DNA of 64,000 nt, taken from the NCBI GenBank assembly GCA_000091205.1, contig AP006502.2; one strand, 5' to 3'. Origin of the DNA: Cyanidioschyzon merolae. Taxonomy: Eukaryota. Positions 1 to 32,684 of the stretch are shown here, piece after piece; position 1 is the stretch's first letter; each line of letters begins with the position of its first letter. Made by a program: the position numbers and the translations under genes. A model generated the notes under the pieces. That model was not told the origin of the DNA and made no database searches. It was given only the letters and a program-made list of their open reading frames with translations.

Positions 1-211
1 CGCGCACCGGAGAGATCAGGCAGGCATGAGTTATGACGCGCTTGTCGCTGTTGAATGGAAACGCGATCCAAATCTTTATGATCTACCTGTAAAGTACACG
101 TTGTATTTGCATTGAAGTCGTAGCAAACTGTAGTTTCAGTTGAATCGTGTTTCAGCGCTCAAGTAAGAATATTCAAGTGCTTTTTCGCGGTTTATAGCAG
201 AAGCGTTCAAA

Positions 212-951
212 TTGTGTTCTTTCTCGAAAGAAACTAAAAAAAGAAAGTTATGGAAAAGCAAGTGGAAGATCCTCGAGGGCCGGTACCGCCGGCTGCCAGA
301 AGAAAAACAAAAAACAATATGGAGTCCAGAGGAACAGGAGAGGACGAAGAAGCAAAGGCAGAAGGCTCTACTTCAAAGGCTGCAAGAAAGACGACTGTAC
401 GACGAGATGGTGGTGAAAGCCTTTCTTCTTGGACATATCAGGTATCCGTACATACAAAAATTGCGAGAGGCCATCAGAAACCGTGTCGATTCATGCTCCA
501 AGAGTGTTCGCAAGGCTTCTTTAGGACTGATGCGTATGGCCGGGGATATATTCCGCGACGTGACGCACATGGAAACGGTCGAGATTCCGGACGAGTTTTT
601 CGATAAGACGTGTATAGGTCAGCTGATACTTGGTACAGAGGAATCGCGGAAGGAAAATGGGCTAGTCCATGGCCTCCACGAAAAAAACATCCCTTTTACA
701 GCTTCAACGGCGCTCGGTACAAGGGTGACCGGGATATTTACAGCTATGGGGCGATGAAGTACCTCACGAACCTGAAGAACCATTTGACAACGAACCTCGA
801 ACGTTTCATGATACGCGCCGTGTTTGCACTCTACCCGGGCATCTCGCGCAATGGGAAAGGGGCGATGATCAACGGCATCACGAAAGATCGCAGGCATGAA
901 GATGAGGTCGAATTCGTCGACAAGAAGGCATCAAACGCGTGCACGAATTAA
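212..951 (+). pseudogene. Element-borne ORF1 region (lysine-rich N-terminus KKRKLWKSKWK), split into two frames (212..757 and 610..951) at an A7 homopolymer (681-687). It is either decayed or expressed by a -1 frameshift or transcriptional slippage.
   Basis: Both frames are conserved at the amino-acid level in copies B (23089..23852, minus) and C (30635..31309, minus). A fused reading ...GLVHGLHEK|KHPFYSFNGARYKGDRD... would need A8. The product is not recognisable. Confidence 0.35.
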
Positions 952-1166
952 GCTTCTGTAATCCGTGCGGCTGTACAAGAGCACCGTGCGGTACTGGGGT
1001 TGGCGTATCCAACAGACAAGATATCAGAGTTGAAAGAAGATAAGGAAAGATACTATCGCCTCATCCTGCGATATTTCGTGTTTCTGGACTGTGAACTCGA
1101 ACGCAAGGCGGAAATGAAGCTGAGTGAGGAAAAAATGAAGAGTGGGAGAGACGGAAGGCTGTCCTG

Positions 1167-2477
1167 TTGGGGAAGCGCTTCAAGGTCGGTGCGTTATGCA
1201 ACATCAAGTCACATTTTGTGAGTATCGATTCCGGCGTCCTCTACGGCATCATGAGGGAGATCTGTTCGGAGTTCGATGTTAGCAGGGAGGAATTCTCCCG
1301 GGAAAACCGGGAGACGTACTGGAAGAACATCTTCGATTTCAAACGTCTCAAAATGAGCGAGCAAAAGTTATTCACTGGGGTGATTGAAACCGATGGAGTA
1401 GCCATGTGTGTACGCTATCGGCGGTTGAAGAAAGATCGGCCAGTTCCGCCCTCGGCTGCGCCCGTCACGAAGGATGAAGAAAAGGAGGAGGCTGGTCCTG
1501 TGGCGCAGGAGGTGCAGGATGACGATCTTGTCGTTGGCGCGGCGAAGCATGAAGATGAGAAGGAGGCGGATCCTGTGATGCAGGAGGTGCAGGATAACGC
1601 CTTTATGGTTGGCGCGGCGAAGCATGAAGAAACGAAGAAGGCGGGTCCTGCGGTGCAGAAAGTGCAGGAGAACGACTTTGTCGTTGGCGCGGACCCCGGA
1701 AACACAAAAAGCATAACTATCGCAGCACCGAAGCGTGCAGAAGATGGTACTGATGGTAACTTGCGTCAGAAGGACATGCGCCTTTTGAGGTGCTCGAGAG
1801 CAAGATACTATCGAGAATCAGGTGTAATGAATGCAAGGAAGAAAATTGAGGCTTGGAACGAAGGAATGAAGGATCACCTGGAAGCTTTAAGCGAGGTGAC
1901 TAGACGAGGAGCGGACTTTGAGGCTTTTCGGAAATTCATGGAAGTTCGTGTTGCCCATTGGGATGCGCTGTGGGAGGAGTATACCAAGCCCCGCTGGGCT
2001 CGTTTGCGAATGAATCTATACTGTGGGAAGCAGCAGGCGTTCGCGAATTTTTTTAATGAGTTGAGCGCCCTGAAGGAGGATGAAAGTCAGAGGCTCGTCG
2101 TAGCGTACGGAGCAGGGCGCTGGAAGATCCGAAAAGGGTGTACACCAGCTCCAACAACGAGAACGTACAAGGAGTGTGCACGGCGTTTTGTTACAGTATC
2201 GATAGTTGAGTTTCGAGCATCGTATACACACCATGAGCTGGGCTGTATACTTCAGAGAGTGGAGATGGAAAAGTGCCAACGGAGCCCTGAGGATATAGCA
2301 AAGTACGGACCACTGACGGAGGAGCAAATGGAAAGGAGGGCAAAAATTCGTGGACTACTTGCATTAGTAAGTGCAACTCCCAACGGCACGAAACGTATGG
2401 AATTTGTGAACCGTGACTTTAACGCCGCTATCAATATACGGAGATGTGCGGTACTGGAGAAGAGACCTCCATCATAG
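1167..2477 (+). CDS. TnpB/Fanzor-like RNA-guided RuvC endonuclease homolog (OMEGA-type, IS200/605 OrfB family), intact 436 aa
   Basis: RuvC-I-like VVGADPGNT with Asp176. C-terminal RuvC-III signature [16 protein letters not shown] with Asp417, as in TnpB DRDVNAAINI. Degenerate Zn-finger-like segment THHELGC...EKC lies between them. The gene is repeated in three element copies. Confidence 0.75.
1470..1694 (+). repeat. In-frame 3 x 75-bp tandem repeat (25-aa units [21 protein letters not shown]). The third unit carries the RuvC-I Asp; units 1-2 end in GAA instead of GAD.
   Basis: The protein shows LVVGAAKHE / FMVGAAKHE / [10 protein letters not shown]. The antisense ORFs 1368..1625 and 1415..1714 are repeat artefacts. 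Confidence 0.8.
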
Positions 2478-2582
2478 ACAAGAGAGCACTTTATTGAACA
2501 ATCTGTCCAAGTCGAACTATATGAGAGAAAGTTGGAAGCAGTAGGAGGTGGCCGATCCAAGAAGGCGCGGAGGCATCTGCAC
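2478..2582 (+). ncRNA. Candidate omega-RNA (reRNA) scaffold at the element right end. The guide is expected from the flank immediately beyond 2582.
   Basis: A 105-nt segment between the nuclease stop codon and the point where homology is lost. It is conserved in copy B (21458..21561) and partly in copy C. The position matches where TnpB and Fanzor omega-RNAs are encoded. Confidence 0.35.
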
Positions 2583-2762
2583 AACTGTCGGAGATGATTT
2601 GTCCAAGGCGCGGTTGCCGCCACGACTGTCCACGCCCGACATCGTTCGAGTTTGAACAGCGTTTTGGAGGCGCGTAATCGATTCATTCGGTTCGCGTTGG
2701 AGCTTTTCGCGGCGTTTTCGTTTCGTGACTGCCGGACACGGGTTTTTGTGAGAAACAGCGAC

Positions 2763-2990
2763 ATGGCGTCACCAAAGAAGACTGCGACGAAAGCTGCTTC
2801 AGCACCGAAAAAGGCTGCGGCGAAAACGAAGGGCGAACGGAAACCAAACGCTTACCAAGAGTTTATGAAGGCAGAGAGTGCCAAGATTCGGGAGTACAAC
2901 AAAGCAAAAGGAATCGAAATGAGGCCACCTGATATTTTCAAGGAGTGTGCGAAGAGATGGAACGAGAAAAAGTCCAAGACAAAGGCGTAA
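2763..2990 (+). CDS. Small lysine-rich, HMG-box-like DNA-binding protein (75 aa)
   Basis: MASPKKTATKAASAPKKAAAKTKGERKPNAYQEFMKAE...AKRWNEKKSK. The P-x-AY-x-F ... W spacing resembles an HMG box, and the ends are basic. The gene lies 181 bp downstream of the copy A right end in the same orientation. Confidence 0.35.
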   Translation: MASPKKTATKAASAPKKAAAKTKGERKPNAYQEFMKAESAKIREYNKAKGIEMRPPDIFKECAKRWNEKKSKTKA

Positions 2991-3003
2991 AGGCTCTGGA
3001 CTT

Positions 3004-3388
3004 GCGCGGTGGTGACGGTACTGGTGCTGGCGGCAGCGGGTCGTGCAGCTTGTAGTTCATAGTCGGTGACCTGGACGTTGACGGAGCGGTGGTTATGGTG
3101 GCAGTGCTCGTGGTTGAGCTCGGCCCGTTACCCGCCAACGCGCTGAGGGGTCAAAAAGCAATCGGGGCTGTCGGCGTGTCACCGTTACAAAGCTCTGCTG
3201 TTGCAGGATGCGTTTTCCCTCGCCAGTTTGGACAAGAAGCTGCCCTCATTTCGGGGCGCTGGAACCAGTGCGAGGCAGCGCCGAGGCCAGGAGCATATGT
3301 CGGGGACGTTCACAGAGCTGGTTTCGATTGAGGTTGTGACGGTTGTGGTGGTTATGGTGCTGGTGCTGGTGCTGGTCGTGGTGGAACT
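3004..3388. repeat. Imperfect GTG/GCT/GGT-rich microsatellite cluster (e.g. 3333-3388 gttgtgacggttgtggtggttatggtgctggtgctggtgctggtcgtggtgg)
   Basis: Direct reading of the sequence. It produces spurious poly-Val and poly-Thr ORFs on both strands. Confidence 0.7.
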
Positions 3389-5673: not shown

Positions 5674-5695
5674 GAAATAAACTCAGACACGCAAA
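5628..5695. repeat. CA/CACG-rich simple repeat (cacgcacacgcacgg...cacgcagacacgcacg...)
   Basis: Direct reading of the sequence. Confidence 0.7.
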
Positions 5696-7149
5696 CAGAA
5701 ACTTGGCGCCACGAAACGAATGCATCAGCGCCACGATCGCTTCGGCGCAATCGGCGATGGGCGCGCTGGTGCACTCGCTGGCATCTGTGCAGCGCGATCC
5801 GTCGCTTACCGGGTTCGTTAAAGGTAACGCGCAGCTGGTGGATGTAGTTCAGTTCATGGGTCTGAATGCTGACGAAAATTGTGCATTTCCAGGTCACTGG
5901 ATTTGTGTCGTGAGACCGCTGCATGTAGAAGCGGGTTGTTCATTCACGGCATCAAAAGCTCGTTGTGTGGTGAGTCGTTTTGCGCATTCAGCCTCGAAGT
6001 GTACGCTCGAATCGGCAACGGTCTGAGAAACATTTTGAGCTATGGGTGGACTCCAAAATCAGGCCAAGCAAAGTGTTTCTCTTCAAACGGGCATGCTGAG
6101 GCGCCATCACGAGCCTTCATAGGAGAGCCTCAAGTCGGGTACCGCGAGTAGAAGCCATGGAGATTTAGCGCGTTATTTTGGCTCTAGTCAGTGACGTGGA
6201 TTGAATGAAACAGCGCTTTCGTTCAACAATTCCCATGAAAAACAGCTCCCAGTGGAAACATATAGATCGCGCTTTAGCTCTGGAGTACTGGTGAAACGCG
6301 CGGTACCATGGCTAGCTGCAGGCGCGAATCGAATCCTCTGTCGACCGGACGCTGGTTATTTTCATCAAAAGTCTGCAGCGTTTCAGGAAATGATCCATAT
6401 GGAGCACTCAACGACTCATCGGGATGTTCGTTCGTCCGTTCGTTCGCTCGAGCCAATACCGCTGAACGCTCCGGAAGCATGGGACATACCCGAATGGTCA
6501 TCGAGGCGATCGAGTCGCGGTCTACAAACTGCCTGCGCCCATTGTTGGCAGTAGAATCACACCAGAGTATGCTTCTCATTTTCGATTACCTCGCCATCGG
6601 TCGTGAAGTCAGCTTACCGTACACAATCCCGTGCATCTGACTCCGCCTCACGCTCTTCTTCTCTAACAGTTTTTGTTTGCGCCCGAGCTCGTGATGCGTT
6701 CACGTCGTCCTGAACATATCCATGGGTGTGGTTTCAGAATCGATTCATGGTTTATCATATGCTGTCGTTCAAGAAGCAGGCGTGCAGCCTTTTTGCGCCA
6801 CAGCACGTCCAGCGCCATTGGCTACCATCAAGCGACGTTACGCATCGGTCATTTGCGTTCCCAGCTCTTGGATCGAGCAGTCGAATGGACGCTTCCTGCC
6901 TCCGCACAACCGAAGCGGTAGACGATGCTTGTGCGATCCGAGGAACTGCCACAGGTCGTCTGCACAAGCCATTTGGACGATGACGTACGCTCCCTTCATG
7001 AAGCGTGCCGCGCGTGTCGCTTTGCTCGAAAAGGTGCTCAGGGCGTCGAAGTCGAACTCCAAGTCGCGACGCCGACCTTTCATTTGTTAGGGCGCTTCCT
7101 GCCGTCGATGAAGCCCTGCTCTCGATCATGTAGAGCGCTGGAAATGCTG

Positions 7150-7170
7150 AGCAGCAGCAGCAGCAGCAGC
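7150..7170. repeat. (AGC)7 trinucleotide microsatellite
   Basis: agcagcagcagcagcagcagc. Confidence 0.9.
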
Positions 7171-9485
7171 ATCTGCTTCCTGTTCCTGCCTTTCGTGTCG
7201 TTCTCTAGAATAGGAGTTGCGGCGACGGTCATGGTGTCGTTCAACTCGATTTGGATGTCCACCACAAACTCCCTCTGGTCACGCATGTTGAGCGGGTGAA
7301 AAAGAGTCTTGTTTGTCGACTAAAGCCTTGGTATCACAGAACGCACGCACATGGGTACTCCGTCCGTCTCCGTTGTCCCCAGAGACTTTCTTCGGTACCC
7401 TTCAAGAACTCCAGAAATCGTGAACGAGCCCCGCCAGTGCTCTGCTCGGAGTTCCCCGAATGCTCTAAACTTGCGCGGAGCAACTAGCGGGAGCTAAATG
7501 AGCAGGCCATACAGTACAGCACACAAGCGTCTACGTTAGTGTGATGAGCCTTTATCTAAAATGTGCGAGCAGCATCGAACACATGCTCGGGGAGGCTAAG
7601 GTGCTCGGTTTCGTAAACGGAGTCAGCCTTTCTCTGGAGGGCGCTTCACTGGAATACGAAGTAGCGCAAGATGGAAGCAAGGCGGGCATCACGTTCCAAT
7701 CATCCCTCGGATACAGTGTCCATTTGGCCGAGCCCGAGTTGAACGAGCTGAGCTTGCAGCATCTGAAACGACTCTCGCTCTCGTTGCGACATCTCTTCCG
7801 AACTCGCGAAAATCTCGAGCTCGTCGGTCACCAGCAACGCATTTGTCTCCATCGGCAGCCCAGTGATGTTTTCCATTAGGATCCACTTTATTGGGCTAGA
7901 ATGGTGAGGCTAAAACGCGCACATGGTGCTCTTTTTGGAGTGTTTGAGATTGGCCTTCATATGATGTTTGAGGTCGGATCGACTTTTTCCTGGTACCTGG
8001 AGAGCGTTTCTTCCAGTCTCTGATCCCACTATCAGGCTGCACTGCATCTTCTGTGCCGAGCATCAGAGGTGCTGTTGCACGACGGTTTGGTCGACGCGTT
8101 CCAGAAGAATGTGAGCAGCTGTCAGCCCTGCATCGGAAACGAGTTTGAACCTACGCTTGACGAGGTGCAGCCAGGCGACTGAGGCTAGACGAGACATGCT
8201 CGAATCAGTAGCCACGAACATCTCTGTGGCATTCTACATCTTTCAGCCTCACGGATGCGAACGAATCGTCTATTGATCCGTAAGCGTAAAAATGACGGTA
8301 GATTGTAAAGAAGACGCTTTGGAGCAGACTGAACCGGGAAGAAGAAGTTCACACGAGGAGCAACACAGCGTAAATCTCAGCTGGGTACGTCTTGATAATA
8401 CTCGAGCGATGGAAAGTGGCATTCTCCAGGAGCAGAGCAAAACAGTTTGGCACGGGAAAGCCAAGAATTGTGCTTCGACGAAGGATATACTTTGAACAAT
8501 CCTGCTTTTTTTGCGATTTGTGATCGACCGCACGATTGCGTTGCTACAGCGGCTGATGTTGTCGTCGTTCTCGCTTGTCTCTTATGTACGCATACCGATT
8601 TTTCTTCTTTGAATACCCATATATAGACCCACCATTTATCCCAAATAGGGGGTCTTGTCAAGTGAGATGAACGCCAGCCACTCCTGCGATAAATGTACTC
8701 TTTTTCGTACGAAATCGACAATGCGTTGTTGAACACACAGGATTCTGGAATGGATGCGCAGTTTTTTGTCCATGCCCGTCCATAGCTCTTCATACCTGTT
8801 CGTGTCGACGCTATAAAAAGCTCATTTGCTGCTGCCTCATCTTGAGTATTTCGTAAAGAAACCTATGGAATAAGATCGATTGACATGTACAGTCGAGTCC
8901 ATAGAATTTGAAATGTTCTATTTCTGGGTGCGCTGTGTTCAGGTAAAGCACGACCCCGAGCGTGACTCATCCACCTGCAGGCCGTAGAATGACGAACTCG
9001 TAGAAGCACAACTGTTTTCCTGCAGCTGTCAGCGACAGCATCCAGTCTTTCAACGATGTTTCCCCACTTTCCAGGAAATACTTCTTTTGTTGAATACGTG
9101 CAAGAAAATCGAGTAAAAACGAAACATGGCATGCTTTAACAGGTATTTCAGAATCTACCGCTCCGCGTACCATGCTCTTCATCGACGACACCCGAGACTT
9201 ACTCGCGAAACGAACCCACCACCGAAAGGCCTATGCAGAAACGCCACACATGGATCAAACCGCACGCTCCGGGGAACGTCGGGCAGTTGCATTGGCGGAA
9301 CGCACACGAGCGTCGATAGAAGGACTCGAGTGTCTTCTCGCTGGTTACTGGGAGCGTGCTGTCGTTCGTCGGACTCGGGCCGTTCCTATTAATTCTTCTT
9401 CAGGAACAGTCCATTCATAAGTGATCCGAGCAACTCAATCGCTGCGTCGACCTCTTGAGTGTCGTTGAAACTTGCGCACTGTGCG

Positions 9486-13357: not shown

Positions 13358-15826
13358 TTACGAGCATACTCGGTAGCCGTCCTCGAGCTGCTGAATTTCG
13401 TCCGGAAGCAGTTCCCGAATCCGGCGCGTTACTGGATCGAAACGATACGGAATGTTACCCAGTTCGCCATCGAAGCGATTCTTCCGCACATCCAGGTACT
13501 TGTAATGACGTCCGTTCTGAATGATGATCACATTATCGGCTTCCTGGGTTGCTTTCGCGCTTCCAAAAACGCTGGCTGTTTTGAGAAGTTGATCTTCGTC
13601 TTCTTTGCGCGGATGGATCACGACTGAGACGTGTACGTTATGTTCCGTCGCAAAAGCGCGAAACTTTTCAATGGCGCGATCCATGATCTCAAAGCGCTCG
13701 TATCCACGCCCCTGTCCACTCGTCATGAATTGCAAATTATCTAGTACCACATGAGCGACATCGTAAACATATGCTGCGTATTCCATAGCGTGAATGACCT
13801 GATCCACATCGCTGGACCCGAAGAATCGCAGAAAATAAAGAGGAAGTTGTTCAAACTGGTCAGCGACTTGATCGAACCGTTCCCCCATGGCATCCAGACC
13901 GATGCCGGCGAACTGACTGAGCATCACTTTCGCCATCCGAACATTGTTCAGTTCGAACGAACCCCAGAGTGTATTCGCACCTTGCATGCAATAATCAAGC
14001 GAGAGTTGCGATAGCACTGTGGTTTTCCCAACGCCGGTCGGTCCAGAAAAGATGGTGAGCTCGCCGCGACGGTGACCCTTCAGCAGACGATTAAGTCCGG
14101 GCAAGGTCTGACTCTGGAGGCCACGAACCTGCACAGGATTCGCCAACTCTCGCTGGACATCGGCCCGCAGGTCAGCAAACGTTACGATTCGCTCGTGCGG
14201 CACTGGACGTGCTCGCTCGATCATGGCGAAGAGGTCGCGCTGCTGCAAAAGCGCCTCGTTTGCGTCCTTCGGGCCGCTTCCATTGCCGCTTCCAACAAGA
14301 AAGCAGCGTTGCAACCCGAGCTTGTGTGCGAACTGCCTCGCTCCATCGTGTCCAGGGATATCGTCATCGAGCCAGAGATAAATCCGCTTGAAACGCTCCA
14401 ACCAGGTGAGAAGCGCAGGAGGCAGGGATCGAGCGCCGTTCGGAAGCGACACCGCACTGAGGCCCGTTGACTGGTGCACCGCCATCGCGTCAAACTCGCC
14501 CTCAGTCACCACGAGACACTCTGCATCCGCAGGGACAAGATGCATACCGAAAAGACCCCAGTAGCCACCACGCGGCTCCAGTCGCATTGCCGACTTGCGC
14601 AGCACAGAACGGATCTTCAGCCGCAACACGCGTGATGGCGGTGGAACACTGGAGTCCTGGCAGGCGCTCTCTTCGCTGCCGAGATTGGACCCTGCAGGGT
14701 TCGGGTCACGTCGGTGGTCTAGCTCCACCAGCGTTGATGGAGCACGCGTGGTAAGCCATTCCGGCTCTATCCACGGGAAGGTGATGCAGTCGTGCTCGGA
14801 CCAGATGTCTGCGGTGCTGCCGCTATCACGAAAACGAAAGCGGCCGGCTCCGACGCGGAACTTGCGTGCAGTTGCGAGTTGCAAGCCACGGGATTTCAGG
14901 AACTGTTTGACTGCGTCACTGCTCTCTAGGCGTGCTTCGCACTGAGCTGCAAGAGCCGCATCAACCACAGGCAACTGCTCCGTTGCCACTGAGTCTATTT
15001 GTGACGTATTAGCGCTCACTGACGCCGCTCCTGAATCCGCGGGGCGAGCACTTGTTGGATGCGCGCCTGGAGCAAGGTGCGCGTTTTCAGGAAACTGACC
15101 TCTCCAGCTAAGTGGTTCCAGGATATCACCAAAACTTCGTTTCAAGTCCCAGTGGTTGCCTTTCGCGCCACAGCGATGGCAGAAAAACACGCCACTAGAC
15201 GTATGGACGTAAAGTTTGAACATGTTGTCCGCCTTGCCGCGCACGGGCGGGCAAAAGGGACAGATGCGGACCACTGCGTGCTGGTCCATCATACGGACCT
15301 CGAGGCCTTTGTCTTCGAGATAGCGTACCATATGACCCGGGGGCAGTTCGAAGAATTGGGAAACAAACGGTGTTCCCGTGGGCGTCTCTCGTATCGGGGG
15401 GCGCGTTCGACGCTGAGGCCAGCGAGCCACTGCGGGCCACAGCGCCGCAGCTCTCAGATCGCGGAGACTCCAAGCGTTGCTGACACCTCGTCGCAGGGCG
15501 TCATGGTCGCTGTTTGTGTAGTTCAAGGGCTCACCATAAATTTCCGGCGGAAACAGGTCTGCTGGTGGTGCGCCAGCGTCCGCTGGCGTTGGATCGTTCG
15601 ACGCCTCTCGTCGGGCAGCATTATCTGTTGTCGGTCCGGGAGAGCCTTGGTTCGCTTTGTCCGAGCGCAGTGTACGCTTCAAACGCACCGGTGTGCTGCC
15701 CGCTCTCTTCAGTGAAAAACTATGGGCTAGAAACGAACGAACAGGTCCCAGGGACGGAAACAGCTGTCGCGACAGCGAAACCCACTTCCACTGCACAAGT
15801 CGCGCTCCATCTTTCCAGTATGTCAT
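13358..15826 (-). CDS. TWNK: Twinkle-type organellar primase-helicase (T7 gp4-like: zinc finger + TOPRIM + DnaB-like helicase)
   Basis: Zn-binding CPFCPPVRGK...FFCHRCGAKG. TOPRIM LVVTEGEFDAMAV. Helicase motifs GPTGVGKTTVLSQLSLDYCMQGANTLWGSFELNNVRMAKVMLSQFAG and VVLDNLQFM are closely similar to metazoan Twinkle. The Arg/Ser-rich N-terminus is presequence-like. Confidence 0.85.
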   Translation of the reverse strand: MTYWKDGARLVQWKWVSLSRQLFPSLGPVRSFLAHSFSLKRAGSTPVRLKRTLRSDKANQGSPGPTTDNAARREASNDPTPADAGAPPADLFPPEIYGEPLNYTNSDHDALRRGVSNAWSLRDLRAAALWPAVARWPQRRTRPPIRETPTGTPFVSQFFELPPGHMVRYLEDKGLEVRMMDQHAVVRICPFCPPVRGKADNMFKLYVHTSSGVFFCHRCGAKGNHWDLKRSFGDILEPLSWRGQFPENAHLAPGAHPTSARPADSGAASVSANTSQIDSVATEQLPVVDAALAAQCEARLESSDAVKQFLKSRGLQLATARKFRVGAGRFRFRDSGSTADIWSEHDCITFPWIEPEWLTTRAPSTLVELDHRRDPNPAGSNLGSEESACQDSSVPPPSRVLRLKIRSVLRKSAMRLEPRGGYWGLFGMHLVPADAECLVVTEGEFDAMAVHQSTGLSAVSLPNGARSLPPALLTWLERFKRIYLWLDDDIPGHDGARQFAHKLGLQRCFLVGSGNGSGPKDANEALLQQRDLFAMIERARPVPHERIVTFADLRADVQRELANPVQVRGLQSQTLPGLNRLLKGHRRGELTIFSGPTGVGKTTVLSQLSLDYCMQGANTLWGSFELNNVRMAKVMLSQFAGIGLDAMGERFDQVADQFEQLPLYFLRFFGSSDVDQVIHAMEYAAYVYDVAHVVLDNLQFMTSGQGRGYERFEIMDRAIEKFRAFATEHNVHVSVVIHPRKEDEDQLLKTASVFGSAKATQEADNVIIIQNGRHYKYLDVRKNRFDGELGNIPYRFDPVTRRIRELLPDEIQQLEDGYRVCS

Positions 15827-20232: not shown

Positions 20233-21369
20233 TCACAAAGTCGCGGACGCCTTGCGGTAATAAGGCGGCCACAGATCATAACCGAATCGCTCGTAATCCT
20301 CGGCGTACAATTTTCTAACCCTTTGCGCCAGACGTTCGTTCACGTGCTTGTGCAAGAGGCTTGCTGCGCTCTGGGAGTGCAGGGTATTCCGGCCGCTCGC
20401 TTGTGCTCGCTTCCGCATGGATTCGTGCCACTCGAGACCGGCCTGACCAAACATATCCACGTAAAACTTTCGAAGTGACTCGGGTTCATCTACTTTTCCG
20501 ATACAGTCGAAGAATGTCCGAGGCAGCATGCGAAAAAGGCAGAAGCCCGACTGTGGGCGCCAATGTTCGTCGAACGGTGTCAGATCTGGGGTCATGGTCT
20601 TTGCAGCCTCTTCCAGGTAGTCCACAAAACGTTCAAACGAGTGAGGGTATCGATTTTTCAATGGATATCGTTCCAGTTCGCGTCCAGCTTTGACTTTATC
20701 AAGGTAAGCCGACAGCAAGCGTGTAAGCGGATGGCGCACCAGGGCACCAAACTTCCACGATGGATCCGAGAGCACTCGAAGAAGCTCCTCGTCCTGCAAA
20801 TGAAGGAGCTGCGTCAAGTTTGCGCGGCCTTGCGGATGAATCAAGTGGATTTCATCGGCATCCAGGGGGTCCAGAACCACCCCCAGCGTTTCCCGCAAAG
20901 CAAATGCACGTGCGGCAGTACAACCGGCTTTCGGTATCGAGCAGAGCAGGCGCTGTTGTTTCGCGAATACGATAACGCCAACAAACGATTGCTCCTGTTC
21001 CCGACGCCAAAGATCAGAAATATTCTGAAAATACTCTGCAAGCGGTTTTTCATTGAAGAGACTTGCAAGCACTGGGGCTTGCCAGGAAAAGTTTACTGTG
21101 TGAGAACGATACTCACTCGGAGAAGATGTTTCGAGTCCGGGCGACGGAACCATGAGGGTTTGCAGCACGCGGTGCGAGGCCAGGATCAGAAGCAACACCC
21201 AGAAAACGGTGAACCAGAAAAACCACCGAAACCATAAATGCATATCTATTTCCTCTACACCGACACGTTGCTTTCCAGGGAAACGAGTGGGAAGATCGTG
21301 TTCCCTCACTCGCCTAATACAAAGCGCCAATGGCTGCAGAAGCGCTGGTGCGGAGTACGCCGCACGCAC
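20233..21369 (-). CDS. Golgi-type carbohydrate sulfotransferase (Sulfotransfer_2 family), type II membrane topology. The likely true start is the Met at 21243 (MHLWFRWFFWFTVFWVLLLIL).
   Basis: 5'-PSB-like IPKAGCTAARA and 3'-PB-like VRHPLTRLLSAYLDK, plus EHWRPQS and a C-terminal YAEDYERFGYDLWP. It is a paralog of 26163..27236. Confidence 0.6.
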   Translation of the reverse strand: MRAAYSAPALLQPLALCIRRVREHDLPTRFPGKQRVGVEEIDMHLWFRWFFWFTVFWVLLLILASHRVLQTLMVPSPGLETSSPSEYRSHTVNFSWQAPVLASLFNEKPLAEYFQNISDLWRREQEQSFVGVIVFAKQQRLLCSIPKAGCTAARAFALRETLGVVLDPLDADEIHLIHPQGRANLTQLLHLQDEELLRVLSDPSWKFGALVRHPLTRLLSAYLDKVKAGRELERYPLKNRYPHSFERFVDYLEEAAKTMTPDLTPFDEHWRPQSGFCLFRMLPRTFFDCIGKVDEPESLRKFYVDMFGQAGLEWHESMRKRAQASGRNTLHSQSAASLLHKHVNERLAQRVRKLYAEDYERFGYDLWPPYYRKASATL

Positions 21370-21457
21370 GCACCAAACGCCGTTCGAACTTGAACGACGT
21401 CGGGCGTGTACAGTAGTGGCGGGAAAACCGTCTTAGATTAGAAGTCTCCAACTGACG

Positions 21458-21561
21458 TGCAGATGCCTCCGCGCCTTTTTGGATCGGCCACCTCCTACTG
21501 CTTCCAACTTTCTCTCATATAGTTCGACTTGGACAGATTGTTCAATAAAGTGCTCTCTTGT
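21458..21561 (-). ncRNA. Candidate omega-RNA scaffold of copy B. The flank beyond 21457 (element orientation: gtcagttggagacttctaatct...) would be the guide.
   Basis: About 97% identical to 2478..2582. It ends at the same ...ggaggcatctgcac boundary. Confidence 0.35.
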
Positions 21562-22872
21562 CTATGATGGAGGTCTCTTCTCCAGTACCGCACATCTCCG
21601 TATATTGATAGCGGCGTTAAAGTCACGGTTCACAAATTCCATACGTTTCGTGCCGTTGGGAGTTGCACTTACTAATGCAAGTAGTCCACGAATTTTTGCC
21701 CTCCTTTCCATTTGCTCCTCCGTCAGTGGTCCGTACTTTGCTATATCCTCAGGGCTCCGCTGGCACTTTTCCATCTCCACCTTCTGAAGTATACACCCCA
21801 GCTCATGGTGTGTATACGATGCTCGAAACTCAACTATCGATACTGCAACAAAACGCCGTGCACACTCTTTGTACGTTCTCGTTGTTGGAGCTGGTGTACA
21901 CCCTTTTCGGATCTTCCAGCGCCCTGCTCCGTACGCTACGACGAGCCTCTGACTTTCATCCTCCTTCAGGGCGCTCAACTCATTACAAAAATTCGCGAAC
22001 ACCCGCTGCTTCCCACAGTATAGATTCATTCGCAAACGAGCCCAGCGGGGCTTGGTATACTCCTCTCCCAGCGCATCCCAGTGGGCAACACGAACTTCCA
22101 TGAATTTCCGAAAAGCCTCAAAGTCCGCTCCTCGCCTAGTCACCTCGCTCAAAGCTTCCAGGTGATCCTTCATTCCTTCATTCCAAGCCTCAATTTTCTT
22201 CCTTGCATTCATTGTACCGGATTCTCGATAGTATCTTGCTCTCGAGCACCTCAAAAGGCGCATGTCCTTCTGACGCAAGTTACCATCAGTACCATCTTCT
22301 GCACGCTTCGGTGCTGCGATGGTTATGATATGTGTGTTTCCGGGGTCCGCGCCAACGACAAAGTCGTTCCCCTGCACTTTCTGCACCGCAGGACCCGCCT
22401 TCTTCGTTTCCTCATGCTTCGCCGCGCCAACCATAAAGGCGTTATCCTGCACCTCCTGCATCACAGGATCCGCCTCCTTCTCATCTTCATGCTTCGCCGC
22501 GCCAACGACAAGATCGTCATCCTGCACCTCCTGCGCCACAGGACCAGCCTCCTCCTTTTCTTCATCCTTCGTGACGGGCGCAGCCGAGGGCGGAACTGGC
22601 CGATCTTTCTTCAACCACCGATAGTGTACATACAATGCTACTCCATCGGTTTCAATCACCCCAGTGAACAACTTTTGCTTGCTCGTTTTGAGACGTTTGA
22701 AATTGAAGGTGTTCTTCCAGTAGGTTTCCCGGTTTTCACCGGTGAAGTCCTCCCTGCTAACATCGAACTCCGGACTGTTCTCCCTCATGATGCCGTAGAG
22801 GACGCCGGAATCGATACTCACAAAGTGTGACTTGATGTTGCATAACGGAACGACGTTGAAGCGCTTCCCCAT
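21562..22872 (-). CDS. TnpB/Fanzor-like RuvC endonuclease homolog, intact 436 aa (about 93% aa identity to copy A)
   Basis: Same motifs as copy A: VVGADPGNT and [26 protein letters not shown]. Length and stop position are identical. Confidence 0.75.
22345..22569 (-). repeat. 3 x 75-bp in-frame tandem repeat inside the copy B nuclease gene (same as 1470..1694)
   Basis: The protein has an identical repeat structure. The antisense ORFs 22081..22830 and 22319..22624 are artefacts. Confidence 0.8.
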
Positions 22873-23088
22873 TCGGACAGCCTTCCGTCTCTCCTACTCT
22901 TCATTTGTCTCTTCACTCAGCTTCATTTCCGCCTTGCGTTCGAGTTCACAGTCCAGAAACACGAAATATCGCAGGATGAAGCGATAGTATCTTTCCTTAT
23001 CTTTTTTCAACTCTGATATCTTGTCTGTTGGATACGCCAACCCCAGTACCGCACGGTGCTCTTGTACAGCCGCACGGATTACAGAAGC

Positions 23089-23852
23089 TTAATTCGTGCA
23101 CGCGTTTGATGCCTTCTTGTCGACAAATTCGACCTCATCTTCATGCCTGCGATCGTTCGTGATGCCGTTGATCATCGCCCCTTTCCCATTGCGCGAGATG
23201 CCCGGGTAGAGTGCAAACACGGCGCGTATCATGAAACGTTCGAGGTTCGTTGTCAAATGGTTCTTCAGGTTCGTGAGGTACTTCATCGCCCCATAGCTGT
23301 AAATATCCCGGTCACCCTTGTACCGAGTACCGTTGAAGCTGTAAAAGGGATGTTTTTTCGTGGAGGCCATGGACTAGCCCATTTTCCTTCCGCGATTCCT
23401 CTGTACCAAGTATCAGCTGACCTATACACGTCTTATCGAAAAACTCGTCCGGAATCTCGACCGTTTCCATGTGCATCACATCACGATACATCTCCCTCAC
23501 CAAATGCATCAGTCCTGACGACGCCTTGACAATACTCTTGGTGTACGAGTCGACACGTTTTACGATAGCGTCTCGCAACAATTCCCTGTGGGGATCCTTG
23601 ATATGTCCAAGAAGGAAGGTTTTCACCACCTTCTCGTTGTACAGTCGTCTTTCTTGCCGCCTTCGACGTAGGGCCTCTCCCTTTCGGTTCTTCTTCTATT
23701 CCTTTTCTCCTGGACTCGGCACTGTTTTTTGTTTTTTCTGGCAGCCTGCGACCCTGGGCCTCCAGGATCGTGGACATGCTTTTCCATAGCTTTCCTTTTT
23801 GTTTTTTTTTTGAAGAAGAACGCTCTTTGAACCCTTCTGTTATATACTGCAA
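23089..23852 (-). pseudogene. Element ORF1 region of copy B, broken into at least 3 frames (23089..23370, 23312..23629, 23481..23852). The homopolymer is A6 (T6 at 23353-23358 on the + strand).
   Basis: Amino-acid homology to 212..951, with HPFYSFNG.RYKGDRDIYSYGAMKYL...VEFVDKKASNACTN identical. Additional indels occur near the N-terminus. Confidence 0.35.
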
Positions 23853-25870
23853 AAAAACACTAGACTAGAGTTGTTTGAAGTTTGAAACAAAAACGAACTG
23901 AAAGGCTGTACTTTGCAATGACCTCAACGAAAATACAACTTTTAGAACAGAGCTACACGAATGAGATCGAGATCGCGTCTCTCTTCAACGACGGCACGCA
24001 CATCGTGTCAGTTAACTGCGCGATCTCCCAAGCGCGCTCGCTATGCGCAATGCGTGCACCGCGCGAGACGCTACTCGGATCGATGAAGGACACGTGTTCG
24101 ACGCCGCATTGGCACATGCGCGTTAGCATCGCACTGGAGCTGAAATAAAGTATCATAGACCGGAAACTCACGTGGAACGATCTCTTGCTATAAGCTATGT
24201 CGCTCGTGCACATCGCAGTACGGACCTGACATACATGGAGATGTAGGGGCCTGGCACGATACCCCTCGACGCTTCTATCAAAAGCGTAGTCGCGGTAGCA
24301 TCTTACGCTTGTGCGGGTAAGGTATGCATCACACCAGCTTGGAAGGGTTTCGTTCGGTTTATTGATCGTAAATAAAGTAGGCACAGTCGTATAACCAAGT
24401 ATGAATATACGTTTATTCTCTATCCTTGTTATGCATGCAGCGCAGACGCTGGAATAAGGAACTGACCTGAATTTTGCTTCTATCCTGCGTTATGTTCCGG
24501 AACTGATGGCACTTCAAGTCATTTCCATGCTACCGTCATTGTCCAAGTTATGGTGCCCGCTACTCTCCCGGATCCGGTGATCTCCGCAGAGGTAAAGCAC
24601 ACACATGTACCGTCCATACCTGCCATGACGTTTGAGCCTTGCGTCTCGCCTGGCACCATGGAGGCACCAGCACCACAGCGCCCCGTACGCGCTAGATCGC
24701 AACGAGTCTCTCGCGAAGCGCATTTTGCTGACACACCGGGGTTTCGATGGATCACGGATCCAAGTGCAGATCCCTCATGTGGCATGGAGGCATGGTCCAT
24801 GCATGCAGAGGAGTTATCCGTATGTCGTTGCGATTTGTGCGCTTCCACACAGGTGGCCCCAAGTATCGAACAGAAGCGTATGCAGAACGCTGCAGCACTG
24901 TCGTTGACAAGTATCGCTACAATATGGGGCCTTTAAAACCGTCAGGTACGCTGGCTTGTTTGCGTTTCTGTCGGACGAAGGTTGGTGACTTGGTTGTTAA
25001 AGAGGCAGCATGGCGTGAGCAGAGGCCGCGGTACTCGCGCAGGCACCATGACCTTCGGTTGGAGCCATAGGTGTGGGTCAGCGTCCCGAAAAGCGATCTG
25101 AAGAACAACGTCTGTGTTATGGGTCGAAAGCGGCTGCTTTTGTACACCACTGGGCGCAGCAAATAACGACACTTTAAGAACGATGCTCGCATCTCTGCAA
25201 CGGACCCGGTTTGAGGCGACTGCCCCTGCAGGCACACGATTCGCCACGCGGTTGCGCTTCTGATCGATGTTGTGCTCGATGAGCGTGGTCACGCATTGCG
25301 ACCGGTAAATAAGAGTATCTTTCCTTACGTTCAAGACTGGCATGCAACCGCGTTTGTGCTCACTAAATGTCTTATTCCAGAACCTAGTTGCACCTGTCGG
25401 AACAAGCATTTCGTTCAGTTGCTGGGGTGCGGCTGGTGCATCATTGTGGTTTGCAACGCGCTCTAGAAAGACGCGCTTCCGGTGCGCACTGCCGAGTGCC
25501 CGGCGGGTAGCGAACGAACGCAGCGTCTCTTATGAGTGACGAGAATCCGTGCGTAGCGCTGCTCGTTCCTCTCCGGACTGGAACGCTGGTGTCAAAGGCG
25601 GTGACTCGCAGACGGGAATCTAGTGCTCGTCGCAGGAACCGTTGTGGCACTAGACCGCACAGCTCCCATGACGCTGCTATACGCAAACACGCTGAAGGAG
25701 TCAGACGACGTTCCCTATGTCAAATTTTGCACCAGGACGCGTCCAGATGTTGCCACTACCGCATGTAGATTTCGAGCTCGTTAAAAAAAGAACCTTCTGG
25801 CCCTGCCAGCTTGGCGGATAGATCCCATTGCCAGATGCGTTCACCCGAATCCAAGCGAATGGACGCGGCC

Positions 25871-26046
25871 ATCGAAAAATGCATCACGTGATCGCACATC
25901 TCGACAGGTGAGCCACCTACCTATGCAGGCATTAGAAAATGCATCAAATAACGGTACTGATCGACAGGTGAGCAACCCACCCGCGCCTGCATCAGTATAC
26001 GCATCACGTCATCACACACGGTACCGGAGGTGAACCTTCGGCGCGG
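25871..26046. repeat. Three degenerate tandem units of about 60 bp, each containing ...gcatca...cgacaggtgagc...
   Basis: atcgaaaaatgcatcacgtgatcgcacatctcgacaggtgagccacc / attagaaaatgcatcaaataacggtactgatcgacaggtgagcaacc / atcagtatacgcatcacgtcatcacacacggtaccggaggtgaacc. Confidence 0.6.
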
Positions 26047-26162
26047 TTAAGATTCCGCTCAGGTATTCCAGGCGAGACAGACGGGTACTCTAGCGAGATC
26101 GCTGTCAAAATCCTCAAGAACCGGACAGGGGGCATTATCATCCGAGCGCGGGTATCAGCGAC

Positions 26163-27236
26163 TCACGAGAGCGCGCCATCTGCATCCACCTCATCCGGCC
26201 ACAAGTCATAGCCGAAATTGATATAGTCTTCCGCGTATAGTCGCTGGATGCGCTTTGCTAGGTCCTCACTAACGTACGCCCGCAGCTTGGCATTCGCGGA
26301 TCGCGCATGTGCGGCCTGCTGACGATGCGCTGCGGCTCGTGCGTCTTGATCCTGGACCCAGCGGCGTCCGTCCTCGTCGAACATATCGATAAAAAGTTGT
26401 CTCAACGCGCTGCGATTCTCAACTTTCACGACGTAATCATACAATTGACGGGGTATAAAACGAAAAAGACAAAACCCCGACTGAGGTCGCCAGTGCTCAT
26501 CGACCCAGTCCCAGTTTTTCCGATACCGACGTGCAACGTCTTCCAAGATGCTTACAAAATGCTCAAACGATGTTACAGGTTGCCGCTGCAGTGGACGACG
26601 CCAAAGTTCCCTCTGGCCAACAATTTTATCCAAGTACGCTGATAGGAGGCGTGATAGAGGGTGTCGCACCACAGCAGCGTACCTCCAGTCCGGGTGCGTC
26701 AGAGCATAATGAACCTGGTCGTCTGAGAGTGACCCCAGCTGCAGCAGGAAGCGTTTGCTGACGGGATGAATATACGAGAAATTCTGCGCATCCGTCGGAT
26801 TGAGCTCAACGTTCAGCTGCTTGCGCAGGGCGAACGCCCGCAGGTTCGTGCACGCAGCCTTCGGAATACTACAGAGCAAGCGTTTCTCTTTCGGAAAAAC
26901 AATGACCCCAACGTAGCTGAGTTTCTGCTCCACTCGCCACTCTGGCTTCAGTTTGAGGCTGATGTTGTGCTTTCCGTTCACAAGACGTTCCGCTGCCGAC
27001 GGAGTTGCGGGCCCTATCGATCCCTGTCCGATAGTTGTGTCCGTTCTCTTTGGGAGCTGCTCAGATGAGAGTGGGCCCCACAGCGCGGAGCGTGAAGCAA
27101 TGTTGAACGCCGTTGACGCCACAGCCAGGCACCACAAAATGAAAAGCACTGTCAGCACCTGTCGCCAGCTCAGCCTCGAAGACATAAACAAACGTATACC
27201 CATTCGGCGACTGCGTACTAGCGAAACCCAGCTCAT
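26163..27236 (-). CDS. Golgi-type carbohydrate sulfotransferase (Sulfotransfer_2 family), paralog of 20233..21369
   Basis: N-terminal signal-anchor VLTVLFILWCLAVASTAF. IPKAACTNLRA and VRHPLSRLLSAYLDK motifs, EHWRPQSGFCLF, and C-terminal YAEDYINFGYDLWP. Confidence 0.6.
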   Translation of the reverse strand: MSWVSLVRSRRMGIRLFMSSRLSWRQVLTVLFILWCLAVASTAFNIASRSALWGPLSSEQLPKRTDTTIGQGSIGPATPSAAERLVNGKHNISLKLKPEWRVEQKLSYVGVIVFPKEKRLLCSIPKAACTNLRAFALRKQLNVELNPTDAQNFSYIHPVSKRFLLQLGSLSDDQVHYALTHPDWRYAAVVRHPLSRLLSAYLDKIVGQRELWRRPLQRQPVTSFEHFVSILEDVARRYRKNWDWVDEHWRPQSGFCLFRFIPRQLYDYVVKVENRSALRQLFIDMFDEDGRRWVQDQDARAAAHRQQAAHARSANAKLRAYVSEDLAKRIQRLYAEDYINFGYDLWPDEVDADGALS

Positions 27237-29347: not shown

Positions 29348-30588
29348 CTCGCAGACGCCTCCCAGTCTTTCTCGACCGGCCTGCTTCTGTCGGTTTCAGC
29401 ATCTCCCTATACATTTCGACGCTGAAAGGCTGTCCAGCAAAGTTGGCTCGCGTCTGCTCCGCGGGTCTCTTCTTCAGCACCGCGCATCTTCGGATACTGA
29501 TAGCAGCGATAAGGTCTCGGCTCACAGACTCCATGCGTTTCTTGCCGCCGCCTGTACACGGCAATGCGAATAGGCCTCGAACTTTCGCCCTCCTTCCCAT
29601 TTGCTCTTCCGTCAACGCTCCGTACTTTCTTACATCCTCGGGGATCCGCTGACGCTTTTCCATCTCGACCCTCTGAAGTGTACACATCAGCTCGTGGTAC
29701 ACGTAGGACGTTCGGAACTCATCTGTAGGTATCGTGACGAAACGCCGTGCGCTCTCCTTGTACGCTCGTGTCGACGGAGCTGGCGTAGTCCCTTTTTTCG
29801 ACGCCCAGCGCTCTGCCCCGTATGCAACACGAGCCTTTGACTCTCGTCCTCTTTGAGGGCGTTCAGCTCGTTGGAAAAGTTGGCGAATGCACGCTGCTTC
29901 CCACAAAAGAAGCTGATACGCAGACGAGCCCAACGGGGCTTTGTGTACTCTTTCCACAGCGCCTCGTACTGAGAAACGCGAACTTTCACGAATTCCCGAA
30001 AAGCTCGAACGTCCGCCCGACGGCTCGTCACCTGGCTGATCGCTGCTAGGTGTTCTTTGACTCCTGAGTTCCACTTCTCACTCTGTATCCTTGGATTCCT
30101 TACCCAGACTCTCGGTAGCACCCAGCGCTTGAGAACCTCAAAAGACACATGCCTTTCTGACGTAAGTTACCTTCAATGCCGTTTCCCCCGCGTTCGAGTG
30201 CTGCGATGGTCACGGTATCCGTGTTCTCGGGGTCCGCGCCAACGACAAAATCGTTGCTCTGCACCTGCTGTGCCGCAGGGCCCGCCTCCTTTTCTCCACG
30301 CTTCGTCAAAATCGACAACAAAAACGGAATAGGACGATCCGCCTTCAACTGCCGATCGTGCACATACATGGCTACTCCATCGGTTTCGATGACGCCTGTG
30401 AATACCTTTTGCTTGCTCGCATGGAAACGTTTGAAATCGAAGATATTCATCCAGTATGTCTCCCGATTTTCGGCGTTGAACTCTATGTTCCTTACATCGG
30501 ACTCTGGACAGACCTCCTTCATGATGCCGTCAACGGCTGTGGAGTCGATAGTCACGAAATGTGATCTGATGTTGCACATTGGAACCAC
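29348..30588 (-). pseudogene. TnpB/Fanzor-like nuclease pseudogene. It needs at least 2 frameshifts (fragments 30100..30588, 29687..30148, 29304..30074), has a single repeat unit and lacks a stop at the homologous position.
   Basis: VVGADPENT is retained, but RuvC-III is altered to RDLIAAISIRRCAVL and the Zn-finger Cys are lost ([20 protein letters not shown]). The ORF reads through the right end into the flank. Confidence 0.65.
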
Positions 30589-30634
30589 GTTGAAGCGCGT
30601 CCCCAGAAGCGCCGCCTTCCCTCTCTCTTACTCT

Positions 30635-31309
30635 TCATTTCTCCCTCACCCAGCTCCTTTTCGGCCTTGCGTTCGAGTTCTCAGTCCAAAAACACGAAAT
30701 AGCGCAGGATGAGGTGATAGTATCTTTCCTTATCTTTTTTCGTATGTGCAACCTTTTTGCTGGGTTGACAAGCCCCAAGACTGCACGGTGCTCTTGTAGA
30801 GCAGCACGGATTCCAGAAGCTTCGTTGTTTCTCCTGCGTGATGTCTTCTTGTCGACGAATTCGATCTCATCTTCACGCTGGCGATGGTTCGTGACGTCAT
30901 TGATGAAGGCCCGTATCCATCTACTAGACAGGTCCGGGTAGAGTGCAAACACGGCGCGTATCATGGAGCGTTCGATGCTCATGGTCAAGTGGTTCTTCAG
31001 GTTCGTGAAGGACTTTTTCGCATCGTAGGTGTAAATATCCGCCTCAGCCTCGTACCGTCTACAGCTGAAGCGATATTCGGCGTAATTCTAGTGGAGAACG
31101 TGCACTCGCTCGTCTCTCCTCGTCGTTCTCCCTGTTCCAAGCATCAGGTTGCTGATATATATCATATGGAAAAATTCCTCCGGAATCTCGACTATTTCCA
31201 TGTGCGTCAGGTCGTCGTGCATCTCGTTCACCAAATGGATTCGTTCTGACGAGGCCTTTATATTACTCATGGAGCACGAGTCGACACGGTTTCTGATGGC
31301 CTCTCGCAA
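30635..31309 (-). pseudogene. Remnants of element ORF1 in copy C (30635..30988 and 31088..31309)
   Basis: MIRAVFALYPDLS...EDEIEFVDKKTS and REAIRNRVDSCS...THMEIVEIPEEFF are homologous to the ORF1 frames of copies A and B. Confidence 0.4.
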
Positions 31310-32684
31310 CTTTTCCTTTTACGGATCCATGACATGTTTAAGAAGGTAGGCTTTCGCCACCGTCCAGTCGTACTGTTGTCTTTCCCGCAGCCTTTTCTGC
31401 GTGGGGCCTCCTGCCTTTGCTTCCTTGTCCTCTACTGTTCCTCTAGACTCGGCACTGCTTTTTGTCTTTTCCGGCAGCTGGCAACAGCGGTCCTTAAGGA
31501 TCCTCTATTTGCATCCCCATAACTTTTTTTATTTTTGAAAACGAACGCACTTTGAACGGATCTGATATGAACCGCGAAAAATCACTTGAATAAACTGAAC
31601 TGAGGCTTGAAACACGATTGGATTGAAAGCGCACACTTTGCTATGACTTCAATGCAAATACAACTTGTACTTTAGAGCAACAAGCTAATGATCAGAATTG
31701 CATTTCTCTTCAACTGCGAGATACGAATCGTGTCTCATTCCTGCCAGATTTAGAGGTGCGCGGATCGACCGGGCTTTAGAAAAAAGAACAGATACGAACC
31801 ACTAGCTAGGAAACACAAGTTCTTTGGCAATCTACGGTAAACGTTTCAAGGGGAAAAGGTGTCCACATTGTCGGAAGTTTACCTTCTACGCGGAAAGTGC
31901 CGCAAGCCGGACGAGTCTGCACGTCTTGCGCTTCATGCTCCCTCCAGTGTTGGGTGGTGTTGTAAGATATGAGCTGCTCTTGTGCAATCCGGTTTATTCT
32001 GGAATTCGGAGCAGGTATGCTGCGTCTGCGTGTTGCCCTGCTCGCAGGATTATCCGAGTGTATCGCTTCGCGCTGTCGCAGACACTGGGTCTGTATGCCG
32101 AGTTTCCAGACTCCTAGAATGATTATGTACTCAGACCCCGTGATGGGTAAACGAAGTCTCGAGACGATGCCCTAAGTGGTATGGCAAAGCCATTTTGTAA
32201 CCGTGATGTTCGGCATCAGCGGTATAGGCGCTGATGTAGGTGTTCGTAGCAGATACTCTGCGAACGATAGAACGTACAAACCGGCCAATACATCCGAGAG
32301 GAGGTAATGGAACCTGGAGTCATGGTGCAGCAGTATGATGGACGCTTTCCCGAAAGCCATTATCCAATGATCCTGCAATCTAGAATCCTTGGTCAATGGA
32401 ATGGTTCTGTCATCACCGTTAAGGATGCGCAGCCGGGGATCCTGGTCGTCGATGTTGCCTTGTTGTCCCGCAAACTTCATTGCCGAAGATCTGGTACTAA
32501 AGTATATAATTATGTCCATAAAGGATCCAGGTATCCCACATCGCCAAGGCGCTCTGGGCCGCGATCTCCCCGGCGCCGCCTTGGGCGCAGCAGAGCGCAG
32601 CGTCTGACGGACCGGGAGCATTAGCACTGGACGCGAAAGTTTAGGATTAGGATTGACGCCCGCAAGAGTACCTAGATCGTTTTT

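Follow-up and report, generated by a model that had tools for sequence, protein, structure and literature searches.

Fanzor proteins were defined by Bao and Jurka (2013; Mobile DNA 4:12; Repbase), who described for Cyanidioschyzon merolae one family of the Fanzor1 type, CMe. The element CMe-1A is present in this alga in approximately 150 copies, each about 80% identical to a consensus of approximately 3 kb. It lacks terminal inverted repeats (TIRs), target site duplications (TSDs) are not discernible, its 5' 635 bp match TE-N2_CMe, a repeat in its own right, at 95% identity, and some copies still encode an intact Fanzor1 (Bao and Jurka 2013). Rhodophyte Fanzors were counted again in surveys of 2023. 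The present analysis concerns a stretch of 64,000 nucleotides (nt) of C. merolae contig AP006502.2 (assembly GCA_000091205.1), in its entirety called the window, which contains three related elements, designated copies A, B and C. In an earlier note on the window they were considered elements of about 2.5 kb that encode a compact nuclease of an undescribed lineage. They are instead decayed copies of CMe-1A, already described in 2013 in the same alga, and are not new.

The references for this comparison were the 3169-bp CMe-1A consensus and the 734-amino acid (aa) CMe-1 protein, both taken from the supplement of Bao and Jurka (2013). By blastn, copy A aligned with consensus positions 659-3137 (window 1-2633) and copy B with positions 687-3137 (window 24009-21406), each at 85-87% identity, and copy C aligned with positions 2-3084 (window 32414-29351) at 80.6% identity over 3095 nt. 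With 81-87% identity to the consensus, A, B and C are therefore ordinary members of the published family, and the proposal of an undescribed lineage is not tenable. The window copies and CMe-1A have in common the species, a protein of approximately 734 aa encoded by a single open reading frame (ORF), a similar divergence between copies and consensus, the same 3' end (...GAAAGGCG), the absence of TIRs and, in copy C, the 5' TE-N2_CMe module of approximately 635 bp. Copies A and B differ from the consensus in a threefold expanded 25-aa unit and a premature stop, and copy B differs from the published 'A' consensus in its 5' leader module; none of these differences is essential. The window is thus best understood, with a probability of roughly 0.9, as C. 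merolae DNA carrying three decayed, non-autonomous CMe-1A copies, whose sole gene is a Fanzor1 gene, together with a relic of an older Fanzor1 family; in intact members of CMe-1A the mechanism would be of the Fanzor/TnpB type. The value of the window for discovery is low, since CMe-1A was reported in this genome in the very paper that named Fanzor.

Repeat finding and self-blastn revealed 92-98% nucleotide identity between A and B, which lie in inverted orientation, and approximately 74-75% identity of C to both. The presence of three homologous elements in the window is real and far beyond chance. Copy A, a Fanzor1 pseudogene on the plus strand, occupies positions 1-2663; its 5' end is cut by the window edge, where position 1 corresponds to consensus position 659. 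Copy B, likewise a Fanzor1 pseudogene, is a CMe-1A-type element of approximately 3.3 kb, has a 5' leader of an alternative type and extends on the minus strand from 21376 to approximately 24675. Copy C (29351-32415, minus strand) is nearly full length and heavily decayed. It includes the 5' module of the consensus, and inspection of the sequence at both ends indicated that the last ~85 nt of its 3' end are missing or diverged. The homology of the three copies and their rough positions had been recognized in the earlier note, whose extents, such as 21458-24083 for B and 29348-31768 for C, had to be revised. As B and C carry a 5' leader of approximately 650 nt, which had been overlooked, and the 3' terminus is sharp, the element length is 3.1-3.3 kb, approximately, and not 2.5 kb. 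Also overlooked was a fourth copy, detected by tblastn at approximately 6442-7993 on the minus strand. This copy derives from another Fanzor1 family, with 25-35% aa identity to CMe-1, and is an old relic in a heavily degraded state; its translation contains MVANGAG, MDMFRTT, in which the catalytic Glu is lost, VDRDSIASMTI and several stops. A second hit about as distant as this relic was observed in one of the comparison loci (L039:7477-8169).

Related elements were compared with the window copies at the level of DNA loci (L001-L072) and of related proteins (the P-series). One of these proteins, P0003, consists of 752 aa and is encoded by one uninterrupted ORF of 2259 nt on a 49-kb contig. It is 71% identical to CMe-1 across the full length. 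Its N-terminal third matches an 'ORF1' and its C-terminal part a '436-aa nuclease', which had been regarded as two genes in the window. When P0003 was mapped onto the window, A, B and C were each found to span the whole protein, but only with frame changes. In copy A the disrupted coding region, delimited by tblastn of P0003 and the CMe-1 protein and by the lesion inventory, covers 250-2603 (plus strand) in three frames and takes in both the former ORF1 (212-757) and the 436-aa ORF (1167-2477). The native protein is the product of a single ORF of approximately 734-752 aa, a size typical or large for Fanzor1. ORF1 is its N-terminal third and the nuclease is therefore not compact; the calculated size of approximately 360 aa and the unrecognized ORF1 partner both resulted from reading one broken frame as two genes.

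The 436-aa ORFs themselves are open in both copies (1167-2477, plus strand, in A; 21562-22872, minus strand, in B), and their start methionine (MGKRF) corresponds, in all full-length relatives, to a residue within the protein. They represent the stretch from the last upstream lesion to a TAG at codon 692 that A and B share and that ends them 43 codons early. Within this stretch, Tandem Repeats Finder identified three tandem 75-nt units, each encoding 25 aa, at 1468-1692 (plus strand) of copy A and the same expansion at 22347-22571 (minus strand) of copy B. Relative to the consensus, which has one unit, A and B thus contain two in-frame insertions of 75 nt. The 25-aa unit (...KHEEKKEAxPxxQEVQDNDFVVG...) is present once in the consensus and three to five times in other members (P0001, P0005, P0008). 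It is located in a loop, predicted to be disordered, that connects the N-terminal domains with RuvC-I (residues 385-469 of P0003, predicted local distance difference test (pLDDT) <50).

Lesions were counted against the coding sequence of the CMe-1A consensus. Copy A contains frameshifts at 302, 689 and 1130 and premature stops at 949, 2475 and 2595. Copy B contains frameshifts at 23737 and 23358 and premature stops at 23698, 23091, 22896 and 21564, and copy C has seven frameshifts and six premature stops. All three copies are pseudogenes with multiple inactivating lesions. Common to A and B are two stops, at consensus codons 233 (TAA, upstream of the 436-aa ORFs) and 692 (TAG), and both 75-nt insertions; the two copies were therefore copied from an already defective progenitor. 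The conclusion that two intact ORFs imply recent activity does not hold: both ORFs belong to multiply disrupted genes with inherited stops, and what was duplicated was a defective copy. The window teaches by correction. A naive reading of ORFs splits one Fanzor1 of approximately 750 aa into an 'ORF1 partner' and a 'compact nuclease', and what is merely the open downstream part of a pseudogene is taken for an intact gene.

A -1 frame change at the same codon occurs in copy A (1125-1136) and in L021, L022, L028, L041, L061, L063 and L065. Programmed -1 frameshifting or transcriptional slippage at this run of A residues was considered and rejected, because the A7 of the consensus (GAGGAAAAAAATG) is in frame and the affected copies have A6 and are otherwise lesioned too. 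The change from A7 to A6 reflects either a deletion that was inherited or a hotspot of mutation. Among the loci fetched, only L001/L002 are free of stops, and L003-L009 carry two to nine in-frame stops. The median pairwise ratio of nonsynonymous to synonymous substitution rates (dN/dS) in the family is 0.40. A value of this order indicates that the protein was under purifying selection during the history of the family.

The standard models of Pfam and NCBIfam miss the clade entirely, and its placement therefore needs either a profile built from the clade or a predicted structure. The window ORFs did not match the Pfam models OrfB_IS605 and OrfB_Zn_ribbon or the TnpB models of NCBIfam. Single-sequence searches of the PDB with the 436-aa ORF and ORF1 gave no relevant match, and a profile of 31 close relatives gave no match in the PDB. 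PF26935, precomputed on many of the homologs, is DUF8286. When 1.84 billion representative proteins were searched exhaustively, 1,517 relatives were obtained, mostly of 600-700 aa, that matched via their C-terminal halves. A clade profile was constructed from 78 sequences, P0003 and 77 relatives at 23-40% identity. In the PDB it matched three proteins only, all of them Fanzor1: PpFz of Parasitella parasitica (9CF0, E 1.4e-21), SpuFz of Spizellomyces punctatus (8GKH, E 5.8e-14) and GtFz of Guillardia theta (9CER, E 1.5e-7). The alignments run through DPGR, DEFRT and NRDxNAAxN. The profile search proposed in the earlier note was thus negative for single sequences and positive, for solved Fanzor1 structures, with the clade profile.

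The structure prediction had been set beforehand as a possible refutation of the nuclease assignment. The AlphaFold2 model of P0003, computed with the clade alignment, has a pLDDT of 81.6 and a predicted TM score (pTM) of 0.80, and the repeat loop is its one long disordered stretch. Foldseek searches of the PDB placed seven Fanzor1 entries, among them SpuFz, PpFz and GtFz, in the top seven positions (E 5e-16 to 6e-13), with TM scores of up to 0.72 (target-normalized) and approximately 765-900 aligned columns over the full length. Cas12 variants follow, from E 8.6e-3 upward. The ORF1 region, which forms the N-terminus of this protein, lies inside its full-length structural match to SpuFz. From the clade profile and the predicted fold, the CMe-1-type protein is assigned to Fanzor1 and thereby to the TnpB/Fanzor superfamily of RuvC nucleases, as had been proposed for the 436-aa protein. 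The refutation named in the earlier note thus did not occur.

The residues predicted to form the active site are conserved. The 436-aa ORFs of A and B retain D176 (GADPG), E348 and D417 (RuvC-III motif), of which D176 and D417 had been correctly identified from the window. RuvC-I of the full-length protein is GADPG. Its aspartate, D484 (GxDPG), is invariant in 78/78 clade sequences, as is an alternative glutamate, E656 (VDEFRTS), approximately 36 aa downstream of the canonical site; D725 (NRD, RuvC-III near the C-terminus) is found in 76/76 ungapped sequences. At the canonical RuvC-II position the sequence is V-A-Y-G, without a Glu. DPG is the RuvC-I signature of Fanzor1 (Yoon et al. 2023), and Fanzors possess a rearranged RuvC-II with a conserved alternative Glu approximately 45 aa downstream of the canonical site (Jiang et al. 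2023). With its triad of DPG, alternative Glu and RD, the CMe-1 clade has the DPG/alternative-Glu arrangement that sets Fanzors apart from most TnpBs.

The best structural match to the CMe-1-type protein is SpuFz1 (PDB 8GKH, 9CEU-9CEZ), with a Foldseek E of approximately 5e-16 and a TM score of 0.71 (SpuFz-normalized) over the full length. CMe-1 and SpuFz1 share the DPG of RuvC-I, the alternative Glu in xDEF/Y(R/K)TS and the NRD of RuvC-III. They differ in sequence (approximately 14-15% identity), in the CxxC...C...C zinc ribbon, which is kept in SpuFz and lacking in CMe-1, and in the disordered repeat insertion of CMe-1; RNA-guided cleavage is a demonstrated feature of SpuFz. Bacterial TnpB (IS200/IS605, IS607) and Cas12f resemble CMe-1 in the RuvC superfamily and the RDxNAAxNI motif, and the overall logic, a nuclease gene plus a guide RNA from the right end of the element, may by analogy be the same. 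In contrast to TnpB, CMe-1 gives no significant match to OrfB_IS605, TnpB or Cas12 models, its fold matches to this group have E values of 8.6e-3 or higher, RuvC-I has DPG rather than DΦG, the Glu occupies another position, the protein is approximately twice as large, the host is eukaryotic and TnpA is not present.

At the 5' end, at least four alternative leader modules of approximately 650 nt precede the shared core across subfamilies (L001-L072). The leader of copy C (approximately 31770-32415) is the TE-N2_CMe-like module of the published consensus. That of copy B (approximately 24010-24675) differs and is common to six independent loci, with similarity up to window positions 24671-24677. 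The alternative leaders suggest that modules were recombined or captured in this part of the element. A coding role of the leader was rejected: both strands contain open frames, but none of them is convincing as a conserved ORF. At the 3' end, the similarity of 62 copies stops sharply after ...GGCGTT, which places the 3' ends of A and B at 2663 and 21376, respectively; copy A terminates with ...GAACAGCGTT (2654-2663). The 3' tails (2430-2663, plus strand, in A; 21376-21610, minus strand, in B) consist of the last ~43 consensus codons and approximately 59 nt of noncoding DNA with a terminal hairpin, which in B has a folding energy of -14.0 kcal/mol (z = -2.1). A stable hairpin terminates most copies, and at least three versions of its sequence occur. 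In an anchored per-copy analysis, one stem position was G-C in 12 copies and U-A in eight. At the 3' end of L028 (2194-2444), the usual hairpin is exchanged for an unrelated 14-bp palindrome, CGGCGAGCACGCGC/GCGCGUGCUCGCCG, at the same position, which is very stable (-32 kcal/mol, z = -5.7).

In the characterized Fanzors, the guide RNA (ωRNA) starts at the 3' end of the ORF and runs across the right boundary of the element, beyond which the guide is located (Jiang et al. 2023). By analogy, an ωRNA at the 3' tail of the copies, with the flank as guide (in copy A from 2664 onward), is plausible by position. In the proposed mechanism, the 3' end of the transcript of intact members such as L001 would be processed into an ωRNA that comprises the last ~43 codons and ~59 nt, ends in the terminal hairpin at ...GGCGTT and derives its guide from the DNA that immediately follows the element on the right. 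The complex of Fanzor1 and ωRNA would cut matching DNA beside a target-adjacent motif (TAM), and thereby help the element to persist or spread. Mobilization proper would be accomplished by a transposase acting in trans, which would explain the continued multiplication of defective copies.

Several observations weigh against the explanation favored here. No model was significant in Pfam and NCBIfam searches with single proteins, and PF07282 (Cas12f1-like TNB domain) matched weakly, in relatives, with a best E of 0.0023, below the threshold. As to the ωRNA, RNAalifold did not recover a consensus structure from the last 250 nt at the 3' end, and the covariation of the hairpin is modest and amounts to a few events at the level of subfamilies. 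A higher conservation of the 3' tail relative to the ORF was considered and rejected: identity is 0.88 in the tail versus 0.86-0.89 in the RuvC coding half, and in the consensus the tail belongs mostly to the coding sequence. The end alignments of the copies revealed no TIR or TSD, and neither a TAM nor a transposase was identified, though no search was aimed at a Rep/HUH gene that shares the termini. Finally, the two CxxC pairs of a C4 zinc ribbon occur in 0/78 clade members, so that nuclease activity cannot be assumed. CMe-1 has HH...C...C at this position and retains the TS of the motif (FRTSY). The motif as originally described includes [TS][TS]-x-x-C4, a zinc finger between the Glu and the RD, and CMe-1 was nonetheless classed as Fanzor1 by the authors who defined the family (Bao and Jurka 2013). 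At the same position, the Volvox proteins VCa-1 and VCa-2 in the supplement of that paper look similar to CMe-1.

The missing zinc ribbon raises the question whether the whole CMe-1 clade is functionally altered, for example to proteins that bind RNA or DNA and are not programmable nucleases. Besides the cysteine pairs, the weak match to the Pfam TNB model and the lack of reported activity for the CMe-1 clade in the Fanzor literature consulted would be in agreement with such a change. We regard it as quite unlikely, since the D-E-D triad is invariant across 78 sequences of 23-40% identity and dN/dS is approximately 0.4, which argue that catalysis has been maintained. Several Cas12 subtypes function without a zinc finger. 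Among Fanzors, moreover, 'many', not all, have it (Yoon et al. 2023). Less well founded still is the interpretation given in the earlier note, according to which the product of the 436-aa ORFs of A and B is a compact Fanzor-like nuclease that is functional, represents a new lineage, has a separate ORF1 partner and was recently active. Both ORFs are indeed open, approximately 93% identical and in possession of D176, E348, D417 and the conserved MGKRF start. Yet the start lies inside every full-length relative, and upstream of it A and B contain the recognizable N-terminal 290 aa, broken by frameshifts and stops, which belong to the full-length match to SpuFz. The TAG 43 codons short of the end and the upstream TAA, both shared, are lesions older than the separation of A and B, and the family had already been published as CMe-1A. 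This interpretation is hardly credible.

Another explanation concerns the ends of the element. The hairpin and the sharp 3' end could be DNA signals for a single-strand transposase of the HUH or rolling-circle kind, as in Helitron- or IS200/605-like elements, and CMe-1A a non-autonomous HUH-type element that captured a Fanzor1 gene. Neither TIRs nor TSDs are detectable, Rep/HUH transposons typically carry subterminal hairpins at one of their ends, a hairpin is retained in L028 even with wholly replaced sequence, and the alternative 5' modules fit modular capture. Fanzor1 genes are, in addition, known passengers of Chlamydomonas Helitron2 elements (Bao and Jurka 2013). Arguing against this explanation, the termini lack the Helitron 5'-TC/CTRR-3' signature, Replitron-like Reps have not been detected in red algae according to the literature, and a Rep/HUH gene with CMe-1A termini was not found, none having been sought. 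An affiliation of CMe-1A with the Replitrons was rejected because these have not been detected in red algae. On balance the HUH explanation seems unlikely. The roles of the hairpin as an ωRNA stem and as an HUH signal are compatible, and the data fit both equally. Within the Fanzor/TnpB-type reading, it is possible, though somewhat doubtful, that the intact members (L001/P0003) are active RNA-guided nucleases in a widespread, zinc-finger-less branch of Fanzor1 with 1,517 relatives, with an ωRNA over the last ~43 codons and the hairpin and possibly with HUH-type mobilization. If intact members were active, they would offer a heat- and acid-adapted eukaryotic scaffold for genome editing, as the alga grows at approximately 42-45 °C and pH 2, and this reading, if true, would also decide to which transposon class CMe-1A belongs.

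The Twinkle helicase encoded in the window (13358-15826, minus strand) is identical in 822/822 residues to XP_005539423.1 of C. merolae strain 10D, and its nearest named relatives are from cyanidiophycean red algae. Pfam confirmed Rpb8, Nrap/NOL6 and two sulfotransferase paralogs. The eukaryotic nuclear context, recognized from the host genes without knowledge of the source, is therefore right and the organism is C. merolae. In the homolog search, every one of 185 close relatives was an unnamed protein from JGI or ENA metagenomes. The comparison loci labeled 'metagenome' (the L-series) are largely genomes of the C. merolae type. L005 and L062, on the JGI metagenome contigs Ga0080006 and JGI20133J14441, are 99% identical to window positions 23900-25400, including unique flanks, from which it follows that these samples are rich in C. 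merolae-like algae.

Just past the 3' ends of B and C lie the two Sulfotransfer_2 paralogs (20233-21369 and 26163-27236, respectively, both on the minus strand), which have the same orientation as the neighboring copies and are 51% identical at the aa level. A meaningful pairing of sulfotransferase and element was considered and is probably a coincidence, because the paralogs are only 51% identical, the leaders of B and C differ and B is only about 74% identical to C. Unrelated to the Fanzor elements, a tandem array with a period of 87 nt and three to four units that are 91-93% identical is located at 50757-51102.

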